Origin: Prorocentrum cordatum
Lineage: Eukaryota
Assembly (NCBI GenBank): GCA_963575745.1
Contig: CAUYUJ010000015.1
Coordinates: forward strand, 248,001-312,000
Direction of reading: 5' to 3'
DNA length: 64,000 bases
In this document: one piece after another, positions 4,843-38,455 of the stretch
How the letters are laid out: each line of letters opens with the position of its first letter
Numbering within the stretch: position 1 is the first letter of the stretch
Notes under the pieces: generated by a model
Databases searched by the model: none
Told to the model about the DNA's origin: nothing
Seen by the model: the letters and a program-made list of their open reading frames with translations, nothing else
Translations under genes and position numbers: made by a program

Positions 4843-6407
4843 ATGTCGTTATTCCTTGAATTGTGTTCTTTGCGCCCGACAGCGCCCAGGACGGCCGTCG
4901 CCTGGGCTGCTGATTTCCTGGCTGAGAACGGCTTCGCACGAGCCTGCGAGCTCGCCAGTGCAGACGCCGCAGACCTGGAAGGTTGGCCGGTCACCGCGCA
5001 GGCCAATGTCGAAGTCCTGCACGAATTATTCAGAGCCGCGAAGATTGCTGCGCGCCGAGGCTCGGCTGCGCGAGGGTTTTTGGCGCGCGCGGCCCCCCCC
5101 CCCCGCCGCGCGTGCGCCTCGCAGGCGCGCCCGTCGCCGTGGGCTCGGCAGTTGGAGGGCGCGCGCCCGCCCGCAGCCGGTCGCCGGCGAGACGCGCGGC
5201 GCCGAGCGCCCCGGGGTCACCCCCTGGACCGCCACAGGCGCGCGTCATCGGCCCCGCGTGCTTGCGCATGCCCGCGCGCCGTGGCTCGCGAGGCGCCCGC
5301 CCCGAGCGTCCTCGACCAGCTGGGCGCGCCGGTCGCGCTGCCAATAACGCGCGGGCCCCGGGCGGCGCTCGCCGAGGCCGCTGCTCGCCTCCGCAGTCCG
5401 GCGGACGCGGCCCGCTGGCGGGAGGAGGAACGCGTTCGCGCTATGCTGCAACCATGCGCACGGTCGCTCCCAAGCGTGAGAAGCGGCCTCAAATGCTGGG
5501 AGGCCTACTGCATCAGAGTGTTGAAATACCCATGCATGCAGCTCCCGCCAGCCTGCGCGGACCTGGTCGCCTGGAGCGCCCTCTTTCGCTGCGGGGAGAC
5601 GTACGCAAATTACTGCAGCTACGTTGAGATCGGCTGCCTCCTGACTGGGGTCTGCGTCGCCGTGTTCGACCGCCCCGAGGTCAGGCGTGCGCGCGCCGCC
5701 GTCCGGGCGCGGGCCGATTGGACTCCGCGCCCGCGCTTGTTTCATCCGTAAGAGCGCGGTCGCCGCGCTGGTCGAGTTGGGCGCGCGCCGCCCCGAGTGG
5801 CTCCGCGCGTCGATGCTTTTCCTTTTCGCCTACGCGTTCTTGTTGCGTGTTCCCAGCAAGGCGTTGCCGGCCGTGCGCGTGGCCGATGCCGGCGACGCGC
5901 CGCCCTTTCAAGCGGCGCTAGTGCTGGGCAGATCGGAGCTCACGCTGCTGCTGCGGCGGCGGAAGAACCGGCCGCAGGGCAGTCGCCTGTCGCGGAAGTG
6001 CTGGTGCTCATCGTGCCGCGCCACGTGCCCCGTGCACACCCTGGGCCCCTGGGTGGCGCGTTGCGGGCTGGGCCGCGGGCTCTTCGGAGGCATCTCGGCG
6101 GCTGCTGCGCTGCGGACCCTGCGCGAGATGCTCGCTGCCCTCGGTGTCCAGGGGGCGAGCCTGTTTCGGTTGCATGACCTCCGCAGGGGCCACGCCAAGG
6201 ACCTGCAGGAGGCTGGCGCGACGCTGGCCGAGATTCTCGCGGCCGGGGAGTGGCGGTCCTGCGCTTTCATGGCGTATCTCGACCGTGACGATCTGGAAAG
6301 GGACGCGGTCGTGGAGGCGGGGCCACGCGCCCTCCGCCCGCGCCGCGGCGCGCTGCTCGCGCCAGGCGCACATGCTGGAGTCGGATTCGGACGAGGGTGC
6401 CTGCTAG
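4843..6407 (+). pseudogene. Tyrosine recombinase, spliced (introns 5060-5124, 5238-5292, 6317-6365); +1 frameshift near 5741
   Basis: Catalytic-type motifs FLLRVPS, RRRKN, CPVH, HDLRRG, GEWRS, AFMAYL; last intron joins AVVE|AHMLESDSDEGAC*. Confidence 0.88.
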
Positions 6408-21408: not shown

Positions 21409-21410
21409 TA

Positions 21411-21513
21411 ATCCAAAAGCCTCATAGCGAGATCGTTTAAAACAGTGCCAGGGCATTGTTTTAAAGAACGGCCGTTCTTTAAAACAGTCCCCCGGGACTG
21501 TTTTGAAGAACGC
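21411..21513 (+). repeat. Left terminal inverted repeat with two ~40-bp palindromes
   Basis: CGTT(CT)TTAAAACAGT-N8-AYTGTTTTRAAGAACG at 21434-21470 and 21473-21512; matches reverse complement of 38371-38453. Confidence 0.9.
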
Positions 21514-22187
21514 GGAAAAATGGTAGCGATGGGGAAAAAGGAGAAGAAGCCGACGACGAACTGTCGTCGGCTTCTGACTTTGGAGGAAGATGACGAGGAG
21601 GAGGAGGATGGAAGAGGGGGTGGAGGAGGAGAAACACGAGGAGCAGGAGGAGCAGAACGAGGAGAGATGTAGTTATCATGGGCGACGGAAGAGCAGAACG
21701 AGGAGGAGGAGGAAGAGGAGGAGGAGGCGGTGGCAGGCGCAGTGCGTAATTAATCCTCCTCCTCCTCCTCCTCCTCCTCCTCCTCCTCCTCCTCCTCCTC
21801 CTCCTCCTCCTCCTCCTCCTCCTCCTCCTCTTTCTCGACAATTACTCAATATGAATACTAATTACTCTCCGCTCGCAGATCCAATTTCTTAACGGCGGCG
21901 TTCCAATTGGCGGAGGGGTTCTGGAGGGGCGCCACATCACATCCCCGACCTCCTATGACGCTCGCCGTCGGCCCGGGTGCTCCACTCAGGTCACGGGGGG
22001 GGGATCGGGGGCGGGTCGTCGCCACGGCTGGACAGGCCCATACGATGAGAGCACGGCTCGGAAATGCCCCTCCAGAGCCAACCTAGCTTGCCCCTCCTCC
22101 TGCTCATGTTCCTCCGCCGCGTGCTCCTCCATTAAAATAATTACGTATTGTTTTCAGAAAAGTGTTTTTCGTCATCGTTCAGCAAAA

Positions 22188-22188
22188 T

Positions 22189-22220
<32 letters not shown>

Positions 22221-22755
22221 GAGGAGGAGGAGGAGGAGGAGGAGGAGGAAGACGGGGGGGAGGGGGAACGAGACGGAGGGGGAGGGAGATGAGGATGTTG
22301 AAAGAGGTGGGAGGATGTGGAGGAGGAGGAGGAGGAGGAGGAGGAGGAGGAGGAGGAGAGGAGGAGGACGACGAGGGAGGGGGGGAAGGGAAAGGAGGAC
22401 GAAGGGAGGAAGAAGAGGAAGGAGGAGGAGGGAGGAATATGAGGAGGAGGACGAGGACAATGACGAGAAGGAAGAGAGGAGGAGGAGGAGGAGGAGGAGG
22501 AGGAGGAGGAGGAGGAGGAGGAGGAGAGGAGGAGGAGGAGGAGGAGGAGGGAGGAGGAGGAGGAGGAGGAGGAGGAGGAGGAGGAGGAGGAGGAGGAGGA
22601 GGAGGAGGAGAGGAGGAGGAGGAGGAGGAGGAGGAGAGGAGAGGAGGAGGAGGAGGAGGAGAGGAGGAGGAGGGGAGAGGAGGAGGAGGGAGGAGGAGGA
22701 GGAGAGGAGGAGGAGGAGGAGGAGGAGAGGGGGGACGACGACGACGACGACGACA
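22188..22755. repeat. (GGA)n purine microsatellite inside the transposon
   Basis: Directly visible. Confidence 0.95.
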
Positions 22756-22839
22756 AGAAACACGCATATTCATCGATATTTGTCGCCATTTGGGGTTCAA
22801 GCGTTTCTTCAAACGTTTCATGCAAACGCAATTCGACTA

Positions 22840-24022
22840 ATGGACGAGGCCCGCGTCCGCGAGCGCCTCCGTCAGCGAATGTCTGGGTATGCAGCAGACC
22901 CAGGCGATGGGCATGGGGATGGAGATCACGGGTGGCAGGTGATCGGCGGTGGGGATCACGGGTGGCAGATCACGGGCGGCAGGTCACGCGTGGCAGGTGA
23001 TTGGCGGGTCGCAGGCGGCGGCCGCAATGGCGGCGGTTGGAGCCGCAGTGGCGGCCGCTGGAATGATGGTGGAGATAACGAGTGGGGAGGTGATCGGTGG
23101 AGCGGATGGGAAGAGCATTCGTCGAGCTGGTGGGGTGGATCTTGGCAGAGCGGCCGCAGTAGCGGATGGCGGGGCGACCCGTGGCGCGCAGAAAACCAGC
23201 AGCCAACGGCAGCGGCGGGCACGGGAGCCGCTCATGAGTCCGCGCCTGCAGAGATCGCGCAACTGACGACGGCGACCCGCGAGGGTGGCAAAGAAGAAGG
23301 CGCAGTTGCGCTTGGCCGATGGGAAGGCGCAGTCGCGCCAGCCACAGAGCCCGCGGCAGAGGAGGAAGCGGCGCCGATCGTATACACGCTCGATTATTTC
23401 CAAAACTACGATAAAGGTTGGAATGGCAATTATAGGCAACACAACGCGGCGTTGAAGTTCTTTCGGGGTGACCTGGAAGAGTTCGCCGCCACCCGCATTT
23501 TCAACACCGCAGTTGCGGAGATGATCCCGTGCATCATCAAAGCCAAGAAGCGCGGGACACATCAGGACAACACGGATTGGCAGTTCAGCGGCGACAGTTT
23601 CACTCCTTGGTCCTGGCTGGAGATGGTTGCGCAGCTGGGCGCGTCTACGATGGAACGAGTGGTGCGCGGCCGCGGTCGCAGTCCTGATGGGGGCCGCAGT
23701 CGCGGTTTGGTCAGTTGCAGTTTGCCCATGCCCGAATTCGCACGACCACAACAGGCAGGCGAAACGCGTGCGTGACAAACACGAGGAGGGCGTCAAGCTG
23801 CAGAGGTGGGATTTCCTCCTGCGCCGTGACGATGGTTCTGGCATTCGTATTCACCCCGAGTGGTCGGAAACGAATTTCCGCATGCACGAGGAGGAGCCGC
23901 ATTCGAGTGCCGCGCCTGCGCCGCGGAAAGGGCTTGGCCAGAGCGACGGGGCTGGGACGTTCCGCTGGCACAAGCAATTGGGCACCCAAGAAATCCCAGG
24001 ACGTTTCGACGGCGAGAAATGA
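22840..24022 (+). pseudogene. Cargo gene A, unknown function; Trp/Gly-rich N-terminus; frameshift near 23722
   Basis: ATG 22840; globular-looking segments YRQHNAALKFFR, PWSWLEMVAQL, WDFLLRRDDGSGIRIHPEWS. Confidence 0.65.
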
Positions 24023-24527
24023 GCGCATTCGCCGCCGCGGCGGGGTTAATAAGTTGCGAGCGCTGCGCGCATGAAGCCGCAGTCGCGGCGGTTGCTTAGC
24101 GATTGAGTCGCGCGGGGCTGAATTGACTCTGATTTGGCGCGGTTAAGCGAGATGGTGAAGCCGCAGTTGCGGCGCTCAGAGTCGCATCTGCTTCATGCGG
24201 GGGCTTGCTTTGCCAGTGGAGCTGGAAAAGGAAAAACCCGTCTTCGCCCGCCTCGTCGTCGTTCTCCTCGCCGTCGTTCTCCTCGTCGTTCTCCTCCCCT
24301 GTCCAATCAGTCCCTCGTGTCCAAGCAGTCTCTCACAACATGTCCCTCGTGTCCGGTCAGTCCCTCGTCCAATCAGTCCCTCGTTCTCCCCGAGCTCCCC
24401 CCGAACCTTCTCGCTCGCCTCGCTGCCCTCCTCGCCCGCCGCAGCCGCTGCCCACCTCGAGCCCTGGCCCGGGGCGGTCGCCCCCCGCGCGCGCGCGAGG
24501 CCCGCGCATCCCTCATGGCAGGGTAAA

Positions 24528-26753
24528 ATGGTTTCACACGTTTACGCGCTCTCCAAGAGCAGGCGCAGCCGCCGAGGCGCAAGCCGAAGCGGAAGCGACG
24601 GGGCTCGGAGATCCCGCAATTCGAAGGCGCTGCATGGGGCCGCAGTTGCGGAGGCGGCGCCTGTGCCTGAGGCCGCCCAGGGCGATGCAGCTTCAGAGGC
24701 CGCAGTTGCGGCCGAGGCACCGCGTTCGCACGAGCAGAAGCTGACGGCCTTGAGGGCGGGCCTCGTTCGCAGGCAACAGCAGCGGGATGCGGCGGCACCC
24801 GCGGGAGCTGCAGAGGGCAGCGATACGGAGTTGGACGACTCAGACGGAGAGCCCGCAGTCGCGGGGCAGCGCGCTTCCTCATCGAAGGGCGCAGTGCTCA
24901 GGCCGCGCAGCGCGGTAGTTGTGCGTCAGACGGAAAAGTGCGACAAGGAGTTGGAGAAGAAGGAAGTCGACAAGGAGGATGGTGAGTGTTCATCTCCAGA
25001 TTCAGATTCATCTTCTGATGTAGGAAATACATCAGAAGAGGAGGAAGCCGGACGTCGCAAAGGCAGGTTGCGTGGAATGAAGCCTCTCAGAACCCCGCCA
25101 GGGAACGCGCAGTTGCGCGCGAGGGGCAGCGTTTGCGACAGCGTGCCCCCGCGGCAGAGCCCGTAGTCGCGGGAGGGGCGCCCCGAGGCAGTTCTTGCCC
25201 CTCGCGCAAAAGGTCTTGCGCGCGCGCCCGCGTCTGAGGCCGCAGTCGCGGTGGAGGGGCCTTGGCCCCCCCAGGGTAAGGCGGGGCCTTGCGGGGGCGA
25301 AGTTCGCGCGGAGGCGTCGGGGGCGAAGTTCGCGCGAATTGCGGCATCGCCCCGCAGGAAGCCGAGCGACATGGCGCGCGCGAAGGCTGCGGCCTCCCCC
25401 GCCAAGGCTTCTCCGCCTCTGGGTCCGCCGGCCCCTTTCTTGAGCCGCAGTCGCGGGAGGGGGGGTCGGGGCCGCAGTCCTCGCACCGAGGGGGCGGCGC
25501 CGAAGGGCGCTCCAGCGGAGCGGCCGTTTCGACACCAGCGCCCGCCGTCGCCGCCGCGGTTCCGGGAGCCGACGCACCCCGCGCCCGAGAAGGACTGGAA
25601 CGAGCGGAACCGAGTTCTGAACGAGACGGTGACGAGGGTCCCAAGCACCATCACGCCCGCGGTCAACGCGGCGATCGTCGCGACGCAGTGCGCCAAGAAC
25701 GCCGTGAGCAAATGGATGTGCAAGCAGACAGCTGGGCTTCTGGTCGCGTTGTTCGACCCCGACTTCATGGCCGCCCTCCACGGCTGGCGCGGCACAGAAG
25801 CCGCAGTCGCGGCAGAAGTGGTGTACACCGCCCTTCTGAAGAAGATCGACGCCAGGCCCGATGGTGAGGAGATCGCACATTGGGCTCGTGCCCCCCTGAT
25901 CGGTCCGAAAGGGCACGACTGCGGATTCGTTGTCTGGCGTGAGCAGATCATCTCAGAGGTCGCAGTTGCGACGCAGGAGAACTCGGAGACGCACGTCTAC
26001 TGGGTCCTGAGCGCCGACTTGGTGGAGTCTGCGCGGAATCCAAGCGCGACGATCCCGTTCGCTGTCTTCACGAGGTGGCATGCCACGCGCCCCACTCGGG
26101 CGGCTCCACGGGGGCCGCACGAGTGGGGCGCGCCCGTGCGGAGGGGGCGCGCAGTCGCGGACGTGCACCACAAGGACGTGCGCTTCCTCGTCGGCTTCTG
26201 GGATGCACCGCAGGAAGTCCTCGCGCGCTTTTACCGCAGTTGCGGAGCGTTCGGGACTCACCCGCTCGCGGTAATCTACGAGGGCTCCTCGAGGCTCGAC
26301 CCGAACCTCGCCCCTGGCAGCCACATCTCGCATCCCATCTACTTCTTGCCCATTGGGCATGGCAACCTGCGGATCGCTGCCTACCAGGACGGGCGGCCGC
26401 CGGCGCTGCCAGAGCGGTTGCGCTCGATTGGGCCCTCCGAGATCGCGCGGCACTGGGTTGAATCGCATCGCATCCCAACGTGGGATTGGGACGAGGACCG
26501 CAGTAGCGGCATTCGGTCCACAGAGGGCCTGCGGCCCGAGATCACATTGGGCAGGGTCGCGCAGAAGGAGCTCAACACAGCGACGTTCTCGAGACACCGC
26601 GTGGATGGCACCCACCAGAACGTCGCGCGCATCGGGCACGGCCGCTCGGGAGGCCACGAGCATCGCGGCAGTGGGAACCGCAGTCGCGGTGAGACGCGGA
26701 TGCCGCGGAGACGCGGATGCCGCTGTCGCGGTGTTAAGGAGCAGGGCGACTGA
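24528..26753 (+). pseudogene. Cargo gene B, unknown function; one in-frame TAG at 25164
   Basis: ORFs 24195-25166 and 25251-26753 share a frame; the stop is a C>T change inside a hairpin motif (ccgTagtcgcgg); low-complexity N-term, globular C-term. Confidence 0.6.
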
Positions 26754-27199
26754 GACGCGGAGGCCGCAGCCGCGGTGCAGCGCAAAAAAAGACGCAGGAG
26801 GGGGGGGGGCAGGGGGGGCAGGGGGAGGAGGAGGAGGAGAGCAGGAGGAGGAGGAGCAGGAGGAGGAGCAGGAGGAGCAGGAGGATCAGGGGCAGGATCT
26901 GGAGCAGGAGCAGGAGCAGGAGCCGGGAACGCAGGAGCAGGAGAAGCAGGACAAGTAGGGCCAGGCTGCGCCGCTCGCGTCCGCCCCCTCCTCTTCCTTC
27001 CCCCCTCCTCCCCCTTCCCCCTCTCATGCTCTCGCCCCCCCTCCCCATCGCCCCCCCCCCCTTTCCCCCGCGGCCGTTTGCGACCGCAGGACTTTTACTT
27101 TGTGTACGCTTGTAACATTTCGCGCGGCGCAACGCGCTGCGTCCATATTTTCTGACAGGCTGCAGGCGCGGCCTGCCCAGGCGACGACGCGACAGGAGC

Positions 27200-28215
27200 C
27201 GCAGCTGCGGATGCCGCGCCGGATTTAGGGATCTTCCAGGGGGCTGAGATCAGACGGCGCTTCAGGGTCGAGGGCCAAGACAAGGTCCGCACCCCTGTGC
27301 GCATGATCGCGCCCCATCCCAGCAATCCCCGCGGGCAGCGCTCTCAGGGCGAGAGGGTTCGGGAACTTGCTGCGCAGAACATCGCGGCGGGCTTCGCGCA
27401 GGCAGAGGCTGACCACGAAGGCGCGCGCGCTCAGGAGCGAAAACGCCTGTGGAGATGGCGCAGAGTGACGAAGGCTTCAAATCGATAGGGGAGCTCAGCA
27501 AAAGTCAAGCGAAAAGGTACATCAAGGAGTGTATCAATCGCAGTTGCGAATCCGACATGCTGTATGGATCCCTTTCGCACTCTCACCTGCGCCTCGTCTT
27601 GCGCGCAATCGCGAACGGGGCCAAGTGGCCCGCCCCGCCTGGGATGGCAATTTACAGACGTGGAGCGCGCAAGGCTTGATCGCGTAGTGGATAAAGATGG
27701 CAACGTCGACACGGCCGCAGTCGCGGACCACGACCCTATTGCCAAGAAGCTCGCCACGGAGGGGATGCTCATGGAGGTGCTTTCCTGGGAGCTCTTGGAA
27801 AAAGAACCCAGCGGAGCTTCGTTGGTCAGCCAATCTTTGAACAAGGGGGCTGACTTCCAGATGCGGGCCACTGAAGTAACAGCGCTCCGCGTTCTTTGCG
27901 ACGCTGTCGACGTTGCCCTGGCGTCCGCAGTCGCGGGGCAGGTGAACTTTCAGCAGATCAAAACAGTCGCGTCTCGGCAGCTCGATCGCGTCTTCCAGGA
28001 CCCAGACTTCGTGGAGCTCTTTGATTTCATTGTGGGCCTCGGGAGCACGAAGTCTCCCTTCATCCTGCTGCTGCTGGAATTCTGCCAAGCATTTGTGAAC
28101 TCGAAGAGGGTCGCTTTGCGACTCGGTGCATTCGGCTTAGCGAAGGGGATTACAGACACTGCGCCGTGGGTCAAGATTGCCGTTGTCATGCGAGCTTACA
28201 GAAATGCCCCTCCAG

Positions 28216-28308
<93 letters not shown>

Positions 28309-29600
28309 ACCGCGGTGCGGCGCGCAGATCCCGAAGCGCCCTGGGCAACAAAAAAGAGAGCACGTCGCGTACCTCGAAGACAACTCGGCCTTCACGATTT
28401 TCTTTCACCACGTGGCCAAGAACGTGGCGGACATGGGCGCCAACGTAGGGCTCGAATTCAAAGCGAATCTGGCCGCGCTGACAGCGGAGGCCGTCGCGAA
28501 GGACGCAAAGGCCACGCAGGTGTCGTCACTGACTGCAGGGGGCGTTCGAAAGGAGATTCTCCGCTGTTGCGTGGATGCCATAGACAACGTGCCGCGCGAG
28601 AATCATCGGAAGGCATTGGTGGCCGCAGTTGCGGCTCTCGAGGGCGCTCGCAAACCTGATTGGTTCAAACTGTCAGAAGCGTCGGCGCCTGCTACGCAGA
28701 AAGCCGCAGTTGCGGCCCAGAGTGCGAACGCAGCGCCAATGGAGGCGCTGCAGCCGAAGGCGTCGACTTTCGACGCTGCGACGCTGCCACCAATTACCAG
28801 CCAGAGCAGCAGGCCGGCAGAAGCAGCCCCCGACACCGTTCCAGTTGCCGACGGCCGAGCGGCAGCAGTCTTCCGCCCATCAAGAGGCGGGGAAAACGTA
28901 CGCGCTGGCTCCTGCGGCGGCCCTCGCTCTTTGGGCGCGCCACTTGACCGCAGTCGCGGAAGTGGGCGTCAAATTGACGCGGGATCCCTGCGCGAACAAG
29001 CTCAGCGCAATAGCGACCGAGGAACGCGAGGCGGAAGCCGTCGAGTTCTGGCCTTGCGCCCCGCAGACTTCCAAAGTGCATGAGAAGAGCTTGCGCCCAG
29101 ACAGGGCGCGCGTGCAGGCGTGCGTGAAGGGGGCCGCAGCTGCGGACGAGGTCTTGGACTCCCACATCAACCCTGAGTTCAAGGCGCCGACAGACACAGC
29201 GCCAGTGGACTTGGGGGCGCAGGGGGTGAAGACATGGAGTTGGGATGCCACTGAAAGCATGCACTGGTCTTGGGCCGTCGGGAAGTCGATGCCGGCTGAG
29301 TTGTCGACGCGGAACGATACGCCTGGAAGCGCAGTTGCGCGGTCCAACATGGGGCTGCAGGAGAAAGAGCTTGCTGTTGTGGTGCCTGGCGCGGCTCCAC
29401 TCGTGGCGAGCATCAAAGTCCCCGTCTTGGTCAACAGCACGCCCGTGAAGAAGGGCGGCGAACTTCTGCGGGAGAGAAAGGCGAGGCCGAAAGCCAAAGC
29501 CAAAGCGAGTTCAGAGACGCGGCGCACGGCAGAGGCGAAGCAGGCGAATGAGAAGGCGTCGGGGCGCCCCCTGCGGAGAAACAAAAGAAAGGTTTTGATG
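27200..29600 (+). pseudogene. Cargo gene C: ParB/Srx-like N-terminus, SET-like C-terminus; several frameshifts and a 92-nt A run
   Basis: IAPHPSNPRG...VRELAAQNIAAGF...YGSLSHSHLRLVLRAI; C-term AIATEE..FWP, SNM, VPVLVNSTPVKKGGEL. Fold calls are by eye. Confidence 0.55.
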
Positions 29601-29958
29601 TCCAGGGGAAGATGTCGCCATGATTGGCCTTGCGCGGCCGCAGCGGCGGCGCTGCGAGCCGCAGTCGCGGCCCTTGCCAGGAGAGCTTCGCGAAGTTGCC
29701 GCGGCGCTGAGGAAAACGAGCGGCAGAAGGGGGGGCGCGAGAGAAACTACTTGTAGGATCATGAGAGAAACAAGAGAGCCGCAGAGGGCCATGTGCGAGA
29801 GGGGGGGGGGGGGGGGGACTCGGGGAAAGGTAGGGGAAGGTGGGGGGGGATGAGGCAAATGGAGCGGGGGAAGAGGCGGGGGAGGAGGCGAAGGAGGAGG
29901 CGGAGGGGGAGGCGGAGGGGGGGGGCTGGGAGCTAGCTCAGGAAGCCTCTCTGGTGGG

Positions 29959-30101
29959 CGTTCTTTAAAACAGTGCCTTGGCATTGTTTCAAAGAACGCT
30001 GAGGACGCTTCGTTCTTTAAAACAGTGCCTTGGCACTGTTTTAAACAACGCTGGGGGCGCTTCGTTATTTAAACAGTGCCTTGGCATTGTTTTAAAGAAC
30101 G
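29959..30101. promoter_or_regulatory. Three internal copies of the TIR palindrome, 52-bp period; putative transposase-binding array
   Basis: Copies start at 29959, 30011, 30063: CGTTCTTTAAAACAGTGCCTTGGCAYTGTTTYAAASAACG-like. Function is inferred. Confidence 0.75.
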
Positions 30102-30268
30102 CCGGCCCCAGAGAATTTCGCTCTCGGCGGGCGGCTTGGGGGCGTCGGGGGAGGGGGAATCGCTCGCGCCGGCGCCGTTGCGGCCCCGATCCGGCCGAGC
30201 TGCTGCTTTTCTGTCGCGAGCCCGCCTGCCTCTGTTCAGGCTCTAGGGCCGCAGTTGCGGCGTCCGCG

Positions 30269-31296
30269 ATGGCTGTCTGGGAGGTGCCCGAAGTGCGCGC
30301 CGCGCTCTGCGTGACTGGCGGCTGGAGCGGGAAGACGTTGGCCATCCCAGACAACGATGTGAAGCACATCTCCCTGCCTGTTGCGGAGAGCACCGAAGAA
30401 GTCGAATTCGTACATGTGACAATGCAGAAGAGGTGGCTCCTGTCGGTGTGCTCTGAACACGCAAGGCCCATCCCAGGACAACTGAAGAGTTCCCCAGCGT
30501 GGAGTCACGCCAAGAAGGCGTGGAGGAAAGCAGGTGGCGCCGCAGTTACGGACGACGGCAACGACAGCGACTCTGACGACGACGACCCCATTGGAGCGCT
30601 CGTGAAATCTGGGCCCGAGAAAGGCTCGAAAATGAAGCGCGACCAGTCGCCTGGGACCCCAGGCGCTCGGGAGATGAAAAAGCAGTCCGCGGGCCATGGA
30701 CGCGGCAAAGGTCACGCAGTCGACAAAACTACAGCCACCGTGCTTTCAGTCGAGGTTCCCGCGAAGAGCGCCTTGAAGTACCCGACAGATACGACGACGC
30801 GAAGCGTGCGCCTGGCCAGTTTCAAGCGCAGGATGTTGTGTCTTGCTGCTACGGACCTCGGCTGGCTGCTCCAACAGATCTCGGGCGACTTGAGCGCCAG
30901 AGGCCGTCCGAACCTCATCGACGCAAACCGCGACGGGAGTGCCGTCGCGCCGTCAGAGCGCGACGCCGCAGTTGCGGAGATGGTCGACCTGACAGACAGC
31001 CCGCCTCCTGGCCCTGAGCACATGGCCCAGGGAAGTGGCGTTGGCTTCGCAATTGCCCGGGATTTCCGAGGCGCTTGGGCTGCAACCATCGCGCGGGACG
31101 GCCCGACCAAAGGAAACACCATCGAGATGGAAGTGAAGAAGCTGACAAAGAAAAGTGGGAGGAGGTCAGAGCCGCGAAGAACTACACGTACGAGTGGAGT
31201 AAAATCACACGGGTGCAGAAGAGGTAGGCGGCGATGGAGCACTTGGAATTACAGGTGCCTGGATTGATCCAGACCCACGCGGATAGCCCAACGTAA
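30269..31296 (+). pseudogene. Cargo gene D, unknown function; frameshift near 31150
   Basis: ATG 30269 MAVWEVPEV...EFVHVTMQKRWLL...DLGWLLQQI; acidic/basic linker. Confidence 0.55.
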
Positions 31297-31618
31297 GAAC
31301 GCAATTCCGCCGCAAGAGAGGGACGTGCCAGACCGCAAAGACGTGCGCGAGGTGCCGCAGTCGCGGCCGCGCCAGGGGCCGCCGTTGCGATGTCTCGTCG
31401 TTCATTGCGCCTGATTGAGGAGATCGCCGACTGAGAGGGGAACTCAGCCACATATTGGGGAGATCAGCGCGCAAAAAAATAGTTTAGTTGCTGCCTTCGC
31501 GAGCTGTGCCTTGCATTTCTTACTTTGCAACCTCGTGCTTCCTGCTTCCTCCATCGCCCTTCGCCCGTCTCCTTCCCAACGTCCGTTCCCGCAGCCGCTT
31601 CCGAGGCTTAAAGGTTCG

Positions 31619-34600
31619 ATGACTCGCAGGGGTGAGTCATGGACGCGCCCCTCGGTAAGCGATGGCATGGCCAGGAAGGCGCTGTGCATTATGAACTGGA
31701 ATGGCTACGGGATGCCAGCGGCGCGAAGCCGAGAAAAACCAGGCATGGCATAACAGGCATTTGCGATATGGCACCGTAGTGACGGGGGACACTGTGGCAA
31801 GGGAGTGAAGGTACACGCGTGCACCCACCTTCCTTGTCAGGCAAAGTGGCCCGCGTCGCAATATGGCACCTCGACAGAGCCGCCATTGTTTCACCTGCAA
31901 CCGTCCGACTGGCGCCCTGACGCCTTGCCCGGCGCCGTCGCGGCGGAGGCCGCGGCGCCAGCCGAAGCGGCGGCACCGCCACCAGCTGCTGACGCAACAG
32001 CAGATGGCGCAGTTGCGCCAGAGGCCGCCGTCGCAGTGTCGCAGAGCGCAGACGCGCCAGAAGCCGCAGTTGCGGCTGCTCCAGCGCCGCCATGCGCGGC
32101 GCCTGCTGGCCTAGAGGACGCAGCCGCACTCGGCACCACCAGAGGAACCACCTGTGGAACCTGCGGACGATGAGAAGGCAGCCGCAGTTGCGGACCCTGA
32201 CGCGCCGCCACTGGCTGAGGCAGGGGGCGTCCCTCTAGGAGAAGAAGTAGGAGAGAGCGCCGCTGCTCCAACTCTGGGGCGCCTGCCTCCAGCGCCCCCT
32301 TTGCCAGCAAAGTGGCGCGATTCTGACGTGCAGTTCTTTCCTTGCTCCGACGCGAAGGCCGCGGCTGCTGTTGCGGCGCCGAGCGCTGCGCCTTTGCGCG
32401 CGCGAGTCCCTGCGGCCCCCCTGGCGCCAACAAAGGGGGAATCTGTGACGGGGGCTCTGAAGCTGCAGGCCGCAGTCGCGGCGAGGGTTCCAGACAAAGT
32501 GATCGCGGTGTTGCGAAGCATTCTGAGAGAGGGCTCCTATGTTGGGTACTCCGCATTTCCCCTGTTCGCCATGCGTTTCAAGCGTCGCCCTTTCGTGTGG
32601 GAAGGTGAGAACCGGAAGGATCTGCTGAACTTCTACATGCCATGGGCAGAGGAGCGTTGCCTTGATCTTTGCGCGGTGGACGGCGTGGCGTGCGTACTCT
32701 GCAAGGATGATGCCGATGATGCTTTGTTCAGTGATGAGTTCACGGCGCAGGATCTGAAGCAAGTGAACGACGAACACCCAGTTCATGAGGTTCGCCACTG
32801 GGTGGCCGCAGTTGCGGCGGGCATGGTGGTGCAAGGTGGAGTAGACCCGCTGAACCAATTCTATGGCCCTCTGGAACAATTCGTCCTGGGAACCGTTTGC
32901 GATGGGAATTGCGGCATCGATGTGATGGCGTTGATGCTCGAGAAGGCCAAAGATGCGCAGTCGCGCGCGTGGATCCGCCAGGAACTCTACGACTTCGGAA
33001 TGGCGCGCTGGAGCGAGCCGTGGTTACTTGACATGTTCCAGGCCACGCAGGAGTTGGAGATGGAAGAACTGAGGGCATATCGCAGTTGCGGCCACGACGA
33101 TCCACCCGTGCAGATCTGTTTGCTAGACGGCGGTGGCGCCCCAGGCGCGGCGCCGGAACCCGCGGAAGAATCCCCCGCAGCAAGTCCCATGCTTCTGGAG
33201 GCCCTCAAGTGGTCCACGGGGGTGACAGACGAAGGAACTTTGATGGCGATCGCGAGCGCCATGCCAGAACCTTTGCAGGGCGAGCAGATCAGAGCGCACG
33301 AGGCGTTTCAGGCGCAGCCAATAGACGTTGTTGCAACTACAAAGAAGAAGGTGCGCCCCTGGCTGCTCGGAGATCGCAGCGTGGTCTGCTTAGATCTCGA
33401 ACAGCGCGCTCACAGTCGCGGTTGGCTGGGCGATGGTCCGCTTCCGCGCGGTGAGCTCAAGAGCTTTTGCGAAAAGTTTTCGTGGCCGACGGCCATGGCG
33501 GAAACAAAACAAAGAAGAAGCGTAGCACGGTGGTGGTGGCGCTGGAGACTGCAGTCTGGACAAGCAGACGCGGGGCAGACTACGAACAGACGGCGCGCAC
33601 ACGGCGCTGGCGCCATGTCGAAATGCCCGCGGCTGGAAGTCATTCTTTACTAGTGGTGGTCACACATGAGGTCATCTGTGGACTGGAAGGCCGTGGCCAA
33701 ACGGAGCCCAGTCGCGGAGCAACGCCCGAAGATGCTCGCTAGGTACACGCAGGCCCTGATCGTCACGAAAGCGCGGCAACCCTTGACGCAGTGCTGCGTG
33801 GAAGCCTTGAAGCAGGGACTCAAACCGAGGGTGCCGCAGTTGCGGCCTCGGCGGTGGTCGAAGTGGCGTCGCTCGTACGGCTTAAGCCTACGAAAACTTG
33901 ACCGTAAGTACAAAGTGCCGAAATGGCTCCTGCTGTCGCGCTTCCAAACGATGATCCTCAACGTGGCGAGGGTTCGGGCCGCCGCGGAGGAACTTCTTGG
34001 CTACGACCCACGCATCCTCAACTGGGACCAATCCCCCTTCCACCACAACGAGACGGCTTCTGCTTCGAAGCCGTGCTTGGCCAAAGGAGGGCTCGCCCCG
34101 CTGGTGGAAGCCCACGACGACAGCAAAGCCAGGTGGACAGCCAACCTCGCGGTGTCGAGCGACACGGCGGAAGTCCGCAGTCGCGGACCGCCGCCGGCGG
34201 AGATGATGTTCAAAGGGAGGCCTGCCGTGGCGAAGGACCTTGCGGCACACGTGCGAAATTGCGAATATGGTGCTTGGGTGAGCACGGCGACCTCTGAGAA
34301 GGGCTCATACCGCACAGAAGATGTCATTGCCTTCCTGAAGCGGCACTTGCGCGCGCGGCCAGAGGACCCGCAGTCGCGGGGGCCGTGGTGCATCCTCATG
34401 GCCGACGACCACGGGCCACACAAAGCAGATGCGGTCAGGAGGCTCGCATGGACACATGGCGACGTCCTCATCATCCATGGAGGGGGCACGACCGCGGCTG
34501 CGCAACCCGTGGACACGGACTTGAATCAGCACGTTAAGCGCCTTTACATGGCACTCAAAACCGCGGAGCTCGTGAAGCAAATGGCGGAGGGCAAACAGGT

Positions 34601-35807
34601 TTCGCAGTTGCGGCGGCACGAGTGCGTCGACTTGATGGTGTCAGTGCTGAGCAATGTACAACTCCACGTAGATGCCGCCGCAGGTTTTCTCAAAACAGGG
34701 ATCAGGGCTCCATTTGAGAAGTCTGGCGATGTGCATATCTGCAGGGAAGCAGCGTCGCCGTGGAGAGACGGGGGCTTGCGGGAGAAAGTAGATGCCGCAG
34801 TCGCGGATGTCAAGGCATAATGCAGAGCGGGCAGGCTCAGGTGGTCATACAACGACATAGGCCGCCTCATCCTACCCTACGAGAAGCACAATGCAGCAGG
34901 CAAGGTCCTGTCTAACTTGGGCGAGGAAGTGCTGAGCAAGAGCGCAGAGGAGAAGGAAGAGGAAGAGGAGGAGGAAGGCGACGGCATGGAGGAGAGCGCC
35001 GACAGCGCTTCCGACGAGGCTGATGAGAAGCGAGGCTGGCAGGAGGCTCGTCAGGAAGACGCAGAGGCCGCAGTTGCGGATTGCGCGCTTGCGCCTGCGG
35101 TGGTCGGGGCGGACAGTGCAGTCGACGCGCGCGCGGCCGATCAGGTAGCAACGGCGGCAGCGCTCGGTGAGACGCTCCAAGAAGCGGAAGCGTTGCTGCG
35201 GAAGGTGGGCATGGAAAAGCTTGCAATGAATTGTCGAAACCAGCAGCGGAAACAAGAGAAGCGCTTGCGAGAGTTGTCTCGCGAGGACGACGGCCTCCTG
35301 CGAGCCTTAACGGCGCAGGGGGATCGCGAGGCCACCGTGGAGGCGACGCGGCGGCGAGTGGCGAGGGAAGCGAACGACATGGCCCTGGCGCTCCGAGACT
35401 TGAGGAGGCAAATTCGGGAGTCCAGGGCCGCCTTGGGAGCGAGCAAAGAAGCCGCAGTCGCGGCGGAGGCGGCGCTGGCGAGCAAATTCGCCCTGGCACA
35501 GTGGAAACCAGAGGACTTCAAGCTCAAGAAAAACATGATGGCGGCTCTGGATCGCCTGGCCCGCGGCAAGGGCGTCCTCTCGGAGGCGCAGAGACAAGAG
35601 TGGGCGTGGTTCAAAACGAACTGGGGCGAGGAGATGAATAAGCAACACAAAGAGGAGTGGCCAACCACCTTCGCAGGATGGATGCAGAAGGTCGCGAACG
35701 ACGCCGCAGATGGGAATCGCGCGGCGCCGTCGCAGTTCGTGTACTCTGAGACAGTGAGAACTCTAGGCGGCCAGATGGCGTTGGTGGTGCCCGCTACCGC
35801 CGCGTAA
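31619..35807 (+). pseudogene. Large transposase gene: OTU-like domain, CENP-B-type HTH, pogo DD35D catalytic domain, coiled-coil tail; stops at 33651 (TAG) and 34818 (TAA); 5' part frameshifted
   Basis: ORFs 32154-33653, 33666-34820 and 34917-35807 are in one frame. ILNWDQSP (D 34026), ILMADDHGPH (D 34404), TTAAAQPVDTDLN (D 34512; 35 residues between D2 and D3); PRLEVILY*WW and WRRSYGLSLRK are HTH-like. Confidence 0.85.
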
Positions 35808-36314
35808 TTCATTGGAGCCTTGTGGCCGCAGTTGCGGCGAGGTGCTGCCGCAGTTGGGGCCCTCTCGCCGCTGCGTTGAAAAAAATCCAGCACCAACGCT
35901 AACTAATTATTGCCGTTGCGTGTCCTCCAGATCCTCGCCCTCCTCCCCCCCTTCCCCCTCGCCCTTATCCTCCTCCTCCTCCTCCTCCTCCCCCTCCTCA
36001 CCGCCATCATCGGCCCTTTCGATCGCCTGCTGCTGCTGCTGGTGCTGCTGCTGTTTCCCTCCGCCCCGCCGCAGCGCCGCTCGATCCTCCTGCAGCTGTT
36101 GCTCCGCCACCCCCTCCTCCTAATCGTTCCAGCGGCGCGAGAGCAATTCCCGGCTCAAGGGCCATCGCTCAAACTCGCCACGGCTGGCGCGGGCGCGCGC
36201 GCGTCCGCTCGGCCGCCACGTCTTCCCGGGGCACTTCTTGGCCTTGGCGGGTCGCGACGCCGACCGCTGAGGGCACTTCTCCTGGCTCAGGAATCCAGTT
36301 TGGCAGCGCGGAGG

Positions 36315-37142
36315 ATGTCAGCGAGGCCGCAGTCGCGGAGGGCGGCGGCGCTGGATCCGGCACCGACGGTTTCACTCAAGACGGGGGCAGTTGCGCTCCG
36401 TCTTCGGCGGCCTCCGCCGCAGGCGACGAAGAAGAAAACCAGGGGGCCGCAGTTGCGGCGGGGGGCAGTCCTGGCGCAGGGGCCGCAGCTGCGGCGGCGC
36501 GTCAAAAGACGGTGCGAGTTTGGGAAAACAGTTCGCCTGCGGAGGGCCCGCCAGCCGACCGACGAAGAGCAGACTGCTCTTCTCGAGTGGGAGAACAAGC
36601 GCAGAGAGAACATGGGGGGATCGGTTTCTACGCTTGCATCTTCGGGGGCACGGCGGCGAAACCGAAGCAGCGCCAAGACGAGCATGCGCAGATACATGCG
36701 AATCCCGCGCATGTCGTCGCCATCTGAGAATGCGACAACGAGCTGTCCGAAGTGTTGTCTGGGCGCAGAGACCCCGCGGAGAGCGCAGCCGCAGTAGCGG
36801 GCGACGCGTTCGCAAATCGAGATCGCTACAACTACTTGTGCGCAAAAGGCGCCGAAGAGAAGGGCTCGCTTCTCATTGGCATTCGAGACCGCGGCGGCGG
36901 TGATATTGAGTGCCGCAACTTCACCAGGAACTTCCAACAAAAAAGAAGTGGCGAAAGCAGGGGCCATCGTCAACCGATACTCCAGGGCCGTGGTCGCACG
37001 CGCAACCCTGGACGGGTCCGTCGCGCACCTGGGTTCCCACGTTGCCGCCACGGCGGCGCGCGCGCACTACAAGTTTGGGCAGCGGCGACTTCGGGGGGGG
37101 AGAAGAAGGAGAATAATAGAAAACAAATCAGAGAAGAAGAAG

Positions 37143-37181
<39 letters not shown>

Positions 37182-38310
37182 TTGCGCGAACACTACGATT
37201 GGTTCGTAGATTACGTCAAGAAGCACAAGGTCCAAGTGTGCATGGGTGATTTCAACATGTGCATGTTCGATTTGGTTCAACAGTGCCGCAGTCGCGGCCT
37301 GACCATCGACGCGGGCGCGTGGACCCCTCGGAAGACCGCAGGCGGCGCGCCCAGTGCCGACAGCATCGCCAAAGGCTTGGACGTCTTACACGAGGGCAAC
37401 GGCGGCCTCCTCGCGCACCACAATACCGACGAGTTCTTCGAGTTCGATTACACGAATGGGCTTGGAAAACAGTTGGAAACAGACTTGCCCAAGAGCGTCA
37501 ACCAGATGGATAAGTTGCGTCCTTGTCTGACGCCAGCAGACGCGCCCGTCGCCGCAGTCGTGGACTTCGAGACGAAGATGGCCGAGATCAAGAGGAATCC
37601 GCAGTCGCGGAGGCATCGAGCACAAGAGTGGGTTCCGCGCCCGTTCAGGACGCGGCAGAAGGAGGTGAACGTCGCCATCTGGAAAGGCTCAATGGGAAAG
37701 GCGCGCAACGGAGCCCACTTCCCTTTACTGGTGTATGCGCACAACCAGCCACGCAGGTCGCCTGAGAAGCAAGCCGAGAGGCCCCTTAAGCAGAAGCCAA
37801 GGAAAGGGGATAACTGGGGGAGCCGAAAAGGAGGCAAAGAGGCAGGGCGAAAACGACGAGCGCAAAGGCGGCGAAGGCCAGAGCAAGGGCGGCCACGGCA
37901 GAGGCCACTGGGGCGGCAAGGGCAAACGCGAATGGGCAGTGGCTCATGACCAACCACCTGGCCTTGAAGCCGCAGTAGCGGTTCAGGAGGAGGCTCGGGG
38001 CCACTGGCAGAGAAACAGGTGGGACGGCTGGAACTCGTGGCGTTCGCAGGGGAGCTCTTGGAATGATTGGGGCTCCTGGGATGGATGGGGCTCCAGTTGG
38101 TGGAGAGATCAGGGCGCCGTAGTCGCGGCTGAGACGCCGCCTGCAGCCGAGGCCCCGATGCCGCAGTCGCGGTTTGCTGGCGGCCACGAGCAATCGGCCG
38201 TTGGCAGCATGTGGGCTAATGCGAACAGTTGGGATGCTCCAGCGCCCCAGCTGCCCATGCCGCTGGGCTCGGTTTGGAGCTACTGGGTGCCTCCAGGGTC
38301 GCTTCCATGA
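36315..38310 (+). pseudogene. Cargo gene E: endonuclease/exonuclease/phosphatase (EEP)-like protein, frameshifted, Trp-rich C-terminus
   Basis: PAHVVAI*E (cf. PDIIxLQE), VCMGDFN, GAHFPLLV (cf. SDHxPL) in canonical order. Confidence 0.65.
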
Positions 38311-38370
38311 CGCCTCAGTTGTGGCATCGCAGAGAAAAATCACCATCACCGACATAATATATCAATAGTA

Positions 38371-38453
38371 GCGTTCTTTAAAACAGTGCCGGGCGACTGT
38401 TTTACAGAACGGTGCCGTTCTTTAAAACGATCTCGTTATTCGGACTTTTGGAT
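38371..38453 (-). repeat. Right terminal inverted repeat
   Basis: Reverse complement ATCCAAAAGTCCGAATAACGAGATCGTTTTAAAGAACGG...; one full palindrome (38372-38411) plus a half site. Confidence 0.9.
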
Positions 38454-38455
38454 TA

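Follow-up and report, generated by a model that had tools for sequence, protein, structure and literature searches.

A probable 17-kb pogo-like transposon in Prorocentrum cordatum, with a giant transposase, accessory genes and a strand-specific 12-nucleotide motif

The DNA analyzed here is a stretch of 64,000 nucleotides from Prorocentrum cordatum (contig CAUYUJ010000015.1, positions 248,001 to 312,000), referred to below as the window. It contains, at positions 21411-38453, an element enclosed by imperfect inverted termini of ~105 nt on the left and ~83 nt on the right, both of which begin with ATCCAAAAG and are adjoined on the outer side by TA. Between the termini lie six co-oriented genes, named Z, A, B, C, transposase and EEP-like, the last so called after a putative domain assignment discussed below. 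An earlier note on this DNA had described a transposase gene accompanied by five more genes in the same orientation, and the count of six is borne out.

The 11-mer TAATCCAAAAG has exactly two matches in the 64 kb, at 21409-21419 on the plus strand and at 38445-38455 on the minus strand; at up to one mismatch 0.31 matches are expected by chance, and two were reached in 3 of 100 shuffles. Alignment of the two ends reveals a 25-nt terminal block (ATCCAAAAG...CGAGATCG) followed by palindromic units of ~38 bp, of which the left end has two and the right end one. The matching inverted termini flanked by TA that had been reported before thus hold up, both in the recurrence of the 11-mer and in the alignment of the ends. 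Written as a pair, the outer ends of the element are ATCCAAAAG...CTTTTGGAT. The palindromic units are built on the 15-mer GTTCTTTAAAACAGT, which at up to two mismatches has 11 matches in the window compared with 0.01 expected: each terminus accounts for three, and the other five form an internal cluster (29960-30100), in which a 52-bp unit is repeated 2.8 times in tandem. We infer that the TA at both ends is a target-site duplication, and put it no more strongly because TA also extends the inverted repeat.

No second copy or fragment of the element was seen within the 64-kb window, in which the flanks are unique, and a joint across 21410/38456 was not found in the contigs of runs X1-X3; among the sequencing runs listed as containing this DNA, none is of RNA. 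Some contigs of run X1 are identical to the window, and others, covering portions of A, C, the transposase and the EEP-like gene, differ from it by 5-12%, which points to the existence of further diverged copies. Several short contigs of the same run join 21606-21662, in the left GGA-repeat, to 29881-29897, a GGA-rich stretch before the internal palindromes, thereby skipping ~8.2 kb. The sides of this joint extend for only 22-30 nt in simple repeats, and it probably reflects repeat cross-matching; it may also represent a deleted derivative of the element.

One of the six genes encodes a giant transposase. Relatives of 1,000-1,540 amino acids align in order with three successive frames (32115-33650, 33654-34817 and 34821-35804), the match to the catalytic core being central, and further N-terminal pieces are found in another frame at 31660-31918, following an ATG at 31639. 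As the relatives span the three frames in order, these belong to one transposase gene of ~1,390 codons; the earlier tally of genes, which agrees in its total, may have counted the three frames apart. In the core, an alignment of 15 relatives shows no variation at D125, D251 and D287 (numbered within the frame), and 35 residues separate D251 from D287, so that the DD35D assignment made previously is confirmed; within the ADD pair, the Asp taken as catalytic was chosen by its resemblance to a motif. The core frame matches Pfam DDE_3 with E 0.0024 (18.2 bits) and DDE_1 (PF03184) with E 0.022 (14.8 bits). Among 32 long relatives, three show a weak match to DDE_1 (E 9e-4 to 5e-3) and four a match to HTH_Tnp_Tc5 (E 6e-4 to 5e-3, under the cut-off), and for the window copy of the transposase Pfam gives no match to a CENP-B/Tc5-type helix-turn-helix (HTH) upstream of the core.

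Relatives of the core are numerous: in a collection of 1.84 billion cluster representatives (at 50% identity), 885 were recovered at E<=1e-3, 471 at 1e-10 and 114 at 1e-30, and the closest relative in the protein library is 66% identical. The family postulated from this single locus is thus supported; it is large and is found mainly in aquatic metagenomes. No relatives of the transposase were found in viral contigs. Prokaryote genome contigs yielded two short transposase-bearing contigs without accessory genes (L033 and L034). Their bins are labelled Planctomycetia and Weeksellaceae, they carry one and four copies, respectively, of the 12-mer described below, and gene B was found in neither bin; their placement is probably the mis-binning of a eukaryote-like transposase.

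Upstream of the core, the transposase carries an N-terminal domain in which His124, Asp159 and Cys162 are invariant in 14 sequences, within the motif T-x-x-D-G-[DN]-C-G. No match to this domain was found in Pfam or among PDB sequences, and on its conserved residues it is a candidate cysteine protease. An accessory protein acting on ubiquitin had been proposed for this locus; the ubiquitin-type DGNC signal lies inside the transposase gene itself and not in a separate accessory gene.

The remaining genes are harder to place by similarity, as Z, A, B, C and the EEP-like gene have no match in Pfam, PHROGs, NCBIfam or PADLOC. In gene A the third-position GC in its own frame (GC3) is 0.79-0.83 over 25311-26810, a signal equal in strength to that of the transposase core; homologues of gene A were found in neither the protein collection, the protein atlas nor the PDB sequences. 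The family to which gene B belongs comprises at least 66 proteins of ~750-850 amino acids. Gene B had been called ParB/SET-like, a label for which the sequence searches gave no support: none of 25 family members matches ParB or SET in Pfam, and gene B has no match among PDB sequences either; its N-terminal consensus LGVHPxNRGG...GTLSHSH bears no more than a resemblance to ParB. The EEP-like gene has two relatives, at 48% and 42% identity, one of which (P0209) has no match in Pfam or among PDB sequences. The language-model neighbours of its protein (0.91) include the EEP set at 20 of 30, and it contains a GDFN-type motif that resembles EEP without confirming the label. On this one language-model lead and the motifs, the EEP (PF03372) assignment is putative.

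Linkage of these genes to the transposase was evaluated in a comparison set of 32 related metagenome contigs, the longest of 9.6 kb. One of them, L007, carries gene B (E 9e-38), a C-like frame (E 2e-4), the transposase and the N-terminal half of the EEP-like gene (E 3e-10) in the same order as the window, its transposase core being 43% identical to that of the window. The EEP-like gene also lies downstream of the transposase in L004 and L006 (E 2e-11). At the main threshold frames Z, A and C have no match in the 32 loci, the similarity of gene C coming from the pairwise comparison with L007. The conservation of gene order that had been suggested as a check is thus seen in L007, and the order B-C-transposase-EEP, kept at 43% core identity, shows that B, C and the EEP-like gene are conserved accessory genes and not captured cargo; the earlier description of the element as cargo-carrying does not fit them. 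No inverted termini were found in L002, L006, L007 or L018. Three of these contigs have repeats of their own. In L007 a palindrome with 27-nt arms (2380-2434) separates B from the C-like frame, in the position that the internal palindromes occupy in the window; in L006 there are intergenic clusters of TAATTAATTAATTA before and after the transposase gene (484-527, 5312-5340 and 5837-5946); and L002, which with L001 is the window's nearest relative on the tree, has ~20 copies of a GC-rich word of the GCGTGCGATCGGCGCG type, different from the 12-mer, clustered at 1-613, upstream of the transposase.

A second hallmark of the element came to light through the recurrence of the tripeptide AVA in the translations, the underlying DNA of which is always alike. 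This DNA is the 12-mer CCGCAGTYGCGG, which occurs exactly 37 times in the window, always on the plus strand and between 23507 and 38172, compared with 0.07 expected. At up to one mismatch the plus strand holds 55 copies between 23043 and 38161 (the 37 exact ones and 18 with one mismatch) and the minus strand three, all of a self-complementary variant. The 47 kb outside the element hold no copies, and of the seven CCGC-N4-GCGG sites found there none has an AGTN loop. The presence of the 12-mer throughout 23043-38172 supports the 17 kb as one unit. In the 32 metagenome loci the form CCGC[AG]GTNGCGG is present in 29, at a density of up to 4.4 per kb, with 249 copies on the transposase-coding strand and one on the opposite strand; in L006 and L007 the copies are spread over all genes and spacers. 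As a control, 121 GC-rich viral loci were selected for holding the motif by a scan with a 14-mer of it, and even these have one copy in 119 cases and two in the other 2.

The 12-mer is conserved across transposases that are 33-50% identical. Some of its sites are common to many lineages (two positions, for example, are shared by 13 of 29 and by 12 of 30 loci), and most are not. The fourth base of the loop follows lineage on a tree of 21 cores, built from family members only, with a GGTG clade and an AGTC clade; L006 (AGTG, 25 copies) adjoins L005 (AGTC, 5 copies) on this tree. Depending on frame, the 12-mer is translated as AAVA in loosely constrained regions and as PQ[LS]R or RS[RC]G inside the conserved core. 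Since copies are found in all three frames and between genes as well, the 12-mer is selected as nucleic acid and not as peptide.

The core of the 12-mer has the potential to form a 4-bp GC stem closed by a 4-nt loop (RGUN), with -6 to -10 kcal/mol in context, and some copies extend to perfect stems of 9-10 bp. To quantify pairing of the flanks, a single locus was taken from each clade and shuffling was kept within loci. Of 154 copies, 84 have a Watson-Crick pair at the flanking position, compared with 47.2 ± 5.1 expected, a level attained in none of 3000 shuffles, and slid controls show no excess. The pairs comprise 39 GC, 24 TA, 14 CG and 7 AT. The covariation score, calculated for 150 of the 154 copies, is 0.192 versus 0.120 ± 0.010 (0 of 500 shuffles), and slid partners give 0.077-0.113. 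From these sequence patterns we conclude that a hairpin or cruciform is under selection and read asymmetrically. Single changes in the stem comprise 36 C-to-T and 16 G-to-A, an asymmetry that weakly favours the sense strand, although mutation bias could yield the same. A signal in the transcript is the use to which we lean, at somewhat short of an even chance; a site acting at the DNA level is a little less probable, and what likelihood is left falls to something other than either.

This copy of the element is decayed, as had been noted before. There are five in-frame stops (at 25164, 27486, 33651, 34818 and 36725), and frameshifts disrupt gene B as well as the EEP-like gene, close to the poly(A) runs 28216-28307 and 37143-37179, and break the transposase gene at least twice, near 31750 and 32110-32170. 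An alternative genetic code was rejected as an explanation of the stops, which comprise three different codons, one of them a C-to-T change within a 12-mer: the TAG in gene A lies in a copy (25161-25172) in which this single change has turned CAG into TAG. The poly(A) runs are pure on the coding strand, with 92 nt in gene B and 37 nt in the EEP-like gene, and look like expanded A-runs, not retrocopy tails. The retrocopy interpretation was rejected for the first because it sits in a lysine-rich part of the gene B frame; the second is likewise in a lysine-rich part of its frame, and in the relative P0209 consecutive lysines occupy the corresponding position. In-frame stops are also found in the transposase of L007 (5417-5452, between the N-terminal domain and the core), and that contig may be a decayed copy as well.

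Table 1. Features of the element in the window (positions of the 64,000-nt stretch). The limits of gene B and of the EEP-like gene were drawn with relatives as guides.
Feature	Position	Strand	Basis
TA beside left terminus, putative target duplication	21409..21410	.	inferred
Left inverted terminus: 25-nt block and two ~38-bp palindromic units	21411..21515	+	
Simple (GGA)n/(TCC)n repeats inside the element, without 12-mer copies	21582..22727	.	
Gene Z candidate, frame 0; non-repetitive tail ~23350-23775	22840..23775	+	
Field of 55 CCGCAGTYGCGG copies, within genes and between	23043..38172	+	
Gene A, frame 2; in-frame TAG 25164	24528..26753	+	GC3 periodicity
Gene B, broken: TAG 27486, 92-nt poly(A), frame changes	27225..29756	+	relatives
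Internal tandem between genes B and C, three ~40-bp palindromes	29959..30102	.	
Gene C, frame 1, ATG 30269; weakly like L007:2875-3789	30269..31267	+	
Giant transposase gene, ~1,390 codons; frame changes; TAG 33651, TAA 34818	31639..35807	+	relatives as guides
N-terminal domain, invariant His124/Asp159/Cys162 (DGxC), candidate cysteine protease	32427..33149	+	
Putative HTH and DD35D catalytic core (D125, D251, D287 of frame)	33654..34817	+	alignment
Conserved C-terminal part: coiled-coil-like stretch and ~85-amino-acid conserved tail	34821..35804	+	
EEP-like gene, broken: TGA 36725, frame change near 36960, poly(A) 37143-37179	36593..37949	+	relatives
Right inverted terminus: terminal block and one full palindromic unit	38371..38453	-	
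TA beside right terminus	38454..38455	.	

The surroundings of the element (1-21400 and 38460-64000) are repeat-rich and gene-poor in appearance, with GC content swinging from 43% to 74% per 2-kb step. None of the 96 flanking frames of at least 200 amino acids outside the element reaches a Pfam gathering score, Rfam and tRNA scans returned no matches, and the dinoflagellate spliced-leader fragment has no match in the window.

Taken together, the structure of 21411-38453 is most probably that of one decayed cut-and-paste transposon of ~17 kb, of the IS630-Tc1-mariner group and closest to pogo, with a B-C-transposase-EEP module and an array of 12-mers on the coding strand. In the mechanism proposed for it, the giant transposase would bind the palindromic subterminal units of both termini through its HTH region, the DD35D core, which is RNase-H-like, would excise the element, and reinsertion would take place at TA; the internal palindromic units between B and C may have a regulatory role or provide a further binding site. 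The proteins of gene B and of the EEP-like gene would act on nucleic acid. The 12-mer would be a cis-acting stem-loop on single-stranded nucleic acid, either a transcript or one DNA strand, and would be read by a sequence-specific factor; this reader is probably encoded by the element, because the fourth base of the loop changes between close lineages.

Several observations weigh against this account. Neither a second complete copy nor an empty site was seen, so that mobility, like the TA duplication, is putative. Both Pfam scores of the core lie under the gathering cut-offs (18.2 versus 28.6 bits for DDE_3, 14.8 versus 22 bits for DDE_1), and the core profile has no match among PDB sequences. 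For genes Z and A no relatives were found, and only the termini and the 12-mer link them to the element. The related contigs are at most 9.6 kb long, and neither the termini nor the palindromic unit were found in any of 34 related loci. With respect to the 12-mer, the motif is absent from 3 of the 32 related loci and present in just 2 copies in L002, and its sites in related loci are not fully independent. Flank pairing shows no excess in L007 (5 of 23) or L012 (3 of 17), and flank G-U pairs are not enriched (98 versus 107.6 expected), so that RNA is not separable from DNA.

A stronger version of the same account may be put forward tentatively, at well below even confidence. It holds jointly that the element represents a new deep lineage of IS630-Tc1-mariner, characterized by a fixed four-gene core, a giant multi-domain transposase and a 12-nt stem-loop array that would act as a family-specific 'self' signal, and that this signal would be read in single-stranded form by an element-encoded protein, being kept at 2-4 copies per kb even in conserved coding sequence and co-evolving with its reader.

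The most serious competitor of single-stranded reading is that the 12-mer works as double-stranded DNA, bound by a protein of the element (gene B, or the transposase through its HTH) that would cover or condense the 17 kb or guard it against self-insertion. The core is indeed a palindrome, CCGC-N4-GCGG; its flanks are enriched for Watson-Crick pairs only and not for G-U; the palindromic units of the termini have CAGT in common with it; and a loop base specific to each lineage would fit an element-encoded reader here too. However, a symmetric dimer site would not produce a strand bias of 249 to 1, and flank identity varies while complementarity stays, a pattern typical of pairing and not of base-specific contacts. 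This possibility deserves to be kept in mind, although it is less likely than not.

The unity of the element, as distinct from the reading of its motif, would be called into question if the locus were composite or nested, with a smaller autonomous element (~29950-38453, or B to EEP) lying beside unrelated DNA, captured or neighbouring (21411-27200, with Z and A), and the internal cluster being the relic of an old end. The internal tandem (29959-30102) resembles the subterminal units at ~80%, relatives of Z and A were found neither in the 32 loci nor in the protein collection, and the left 1.6 kb is simple repeat, all of which would suit such an origin. Yet the tandem lacks the 25-nt terminal block, 20 of the element-specific 12-mers lie to the left of gene B (23043-27199) with none in the 47 kb outside the termini, and in L007, where a palindrome likewise separates B from the C-like frame, gene B precedes C and the transposase. 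A composite origin is thus improbable, and a single unit remains the preferred reading.

Two further explanations may be dismissed briefly. That AAVA is a protein-level signal, for instance a site at which the N-terminal His/Asp/Cys domain cleaves or modifies the protein, with the DNA motif as its shadow, would accommodate the enrichment of AVA in the gene B family (401 versus 53 expected, 7.5-fold) and the transposase family (256 versus 75, 3.4-fold), but it is contradicted by the two other frames used in the conserved core and by the intergenic copies, and the synonymous positions are fixed (GCC GCA GTY GCG G), which makes it very improbable. That the locus is not a transposon at all, its ends arising by chance or through misassembly on either side of clustered host genes or of an integrated virus-like element, could appeal to the second copy not seen in the window, and is scarcely credible given that the ends have an 11-mer and subterminal units in common far above chance, that they enclose a DDD transposase belonging to a very large family, that no capsid, polymerase or other viral family was matched, and that the scan of viral contigs gave no relative.

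Comparison with known systems places the element near several of them. Tc1/mariner/pogo elements are the textbook minimal transposon, with one gene and a length of a few kb. The present element resembles pogo/Fot1-like transposons in its TA-flanked inverted termini, the DDD triad with a spacing of 35, the weak DDE_1 match and the HTH_Tnp_Tc5 matches in relatives; unlike them, it is ~17 kb long with six genes, its transposase of ~1,400 amino acids has extra N- and C-terminal parts, its Pfam scores stay under the cut-off and it has a dense strand-specific 12-mer. In exceeding 10 kb and holding several genes it is similar to Starships and Teratorn, but these and others rely on tyrosine recombinases, piggyBac or other enzymes and differ in their cargo from copy to copy, whereas the extra genes of the present element are conserved. 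Cysteine proteases of the Ulp1/OTU type are encoded by KI-MULEs and some Helitrons, to which the conserved His/Asp/Cys domain (DGxC) linked to the transposase bears a likeness; here, in contrast, the domain is fused to a pogo-like transposase and has no library match, and its His precedes the Cys by 38 residues, a misfit with the usual OTU order. The 12-mer itself is comparable to Chi, KOPS, uptake sequences and REP, which are bacterial, chromosome-wide, strand-biased and tolerated in genes, REP being hairpin-forming as well. Like them it is far above chance, lies in genes and is strand-biased, a likeness in working only; unlike them, it is restricted to a mobile element, probably from a eukaryote.

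In the sections of PMC7325037 available, pogo groups 33-40 are DD35D, Tc1 elements have a single open reading frame (ORF) in ~1.3 kb, and PlantMar elements measure 2-6 kb. Those sections name as multi-gene IS630-Tc1-mariner elements only the ciliate TBE/Tec elements, which have three ORFs and a DD34E transposase, Tec with a site-specific recombinase in addition. The present element shares with TBE/Tec the multi-ORF organization within IS630-Tc1-mariner and, as far as the description in those sections goes, is set apart by being DD35D and not DD34E and by its other accessory genes. A term search of a 2019 review of giant eukaryotic transposons (PMC6431247) gave no mention of mariner, pogo or Tc1. 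A full-text search for the 12-mer gave sequence matches only to primers or a fly oligonucleotide, and no described counterpart of a strand-specific hairpin motif in a eukaryotic transposon was found in the full-text literature. The suggestion that the locus represents an undescribed system agrees with the outcome that no description of it was found in the full-text literature searched.

Members of the family are ~10 times larger than the textbook minimal transposon, with at least four genes in a fixed order and a protease-like domain fused to the transposase, and they raise the questions of how such long elements are mobilized and what role accessory nucleases play. The 12-mer is a testable cis-element with candidate readers encoded beside it, and together with its AVA footprint it offers a practical marker for the family in metagenomes, including contigs mis-binned into bacterial genomes. 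If the stronger version of the account is true, the 12-mer array would be a eukaryotic mobile-element counterpart of polar motifs of the REP, Chi or KOPS type.

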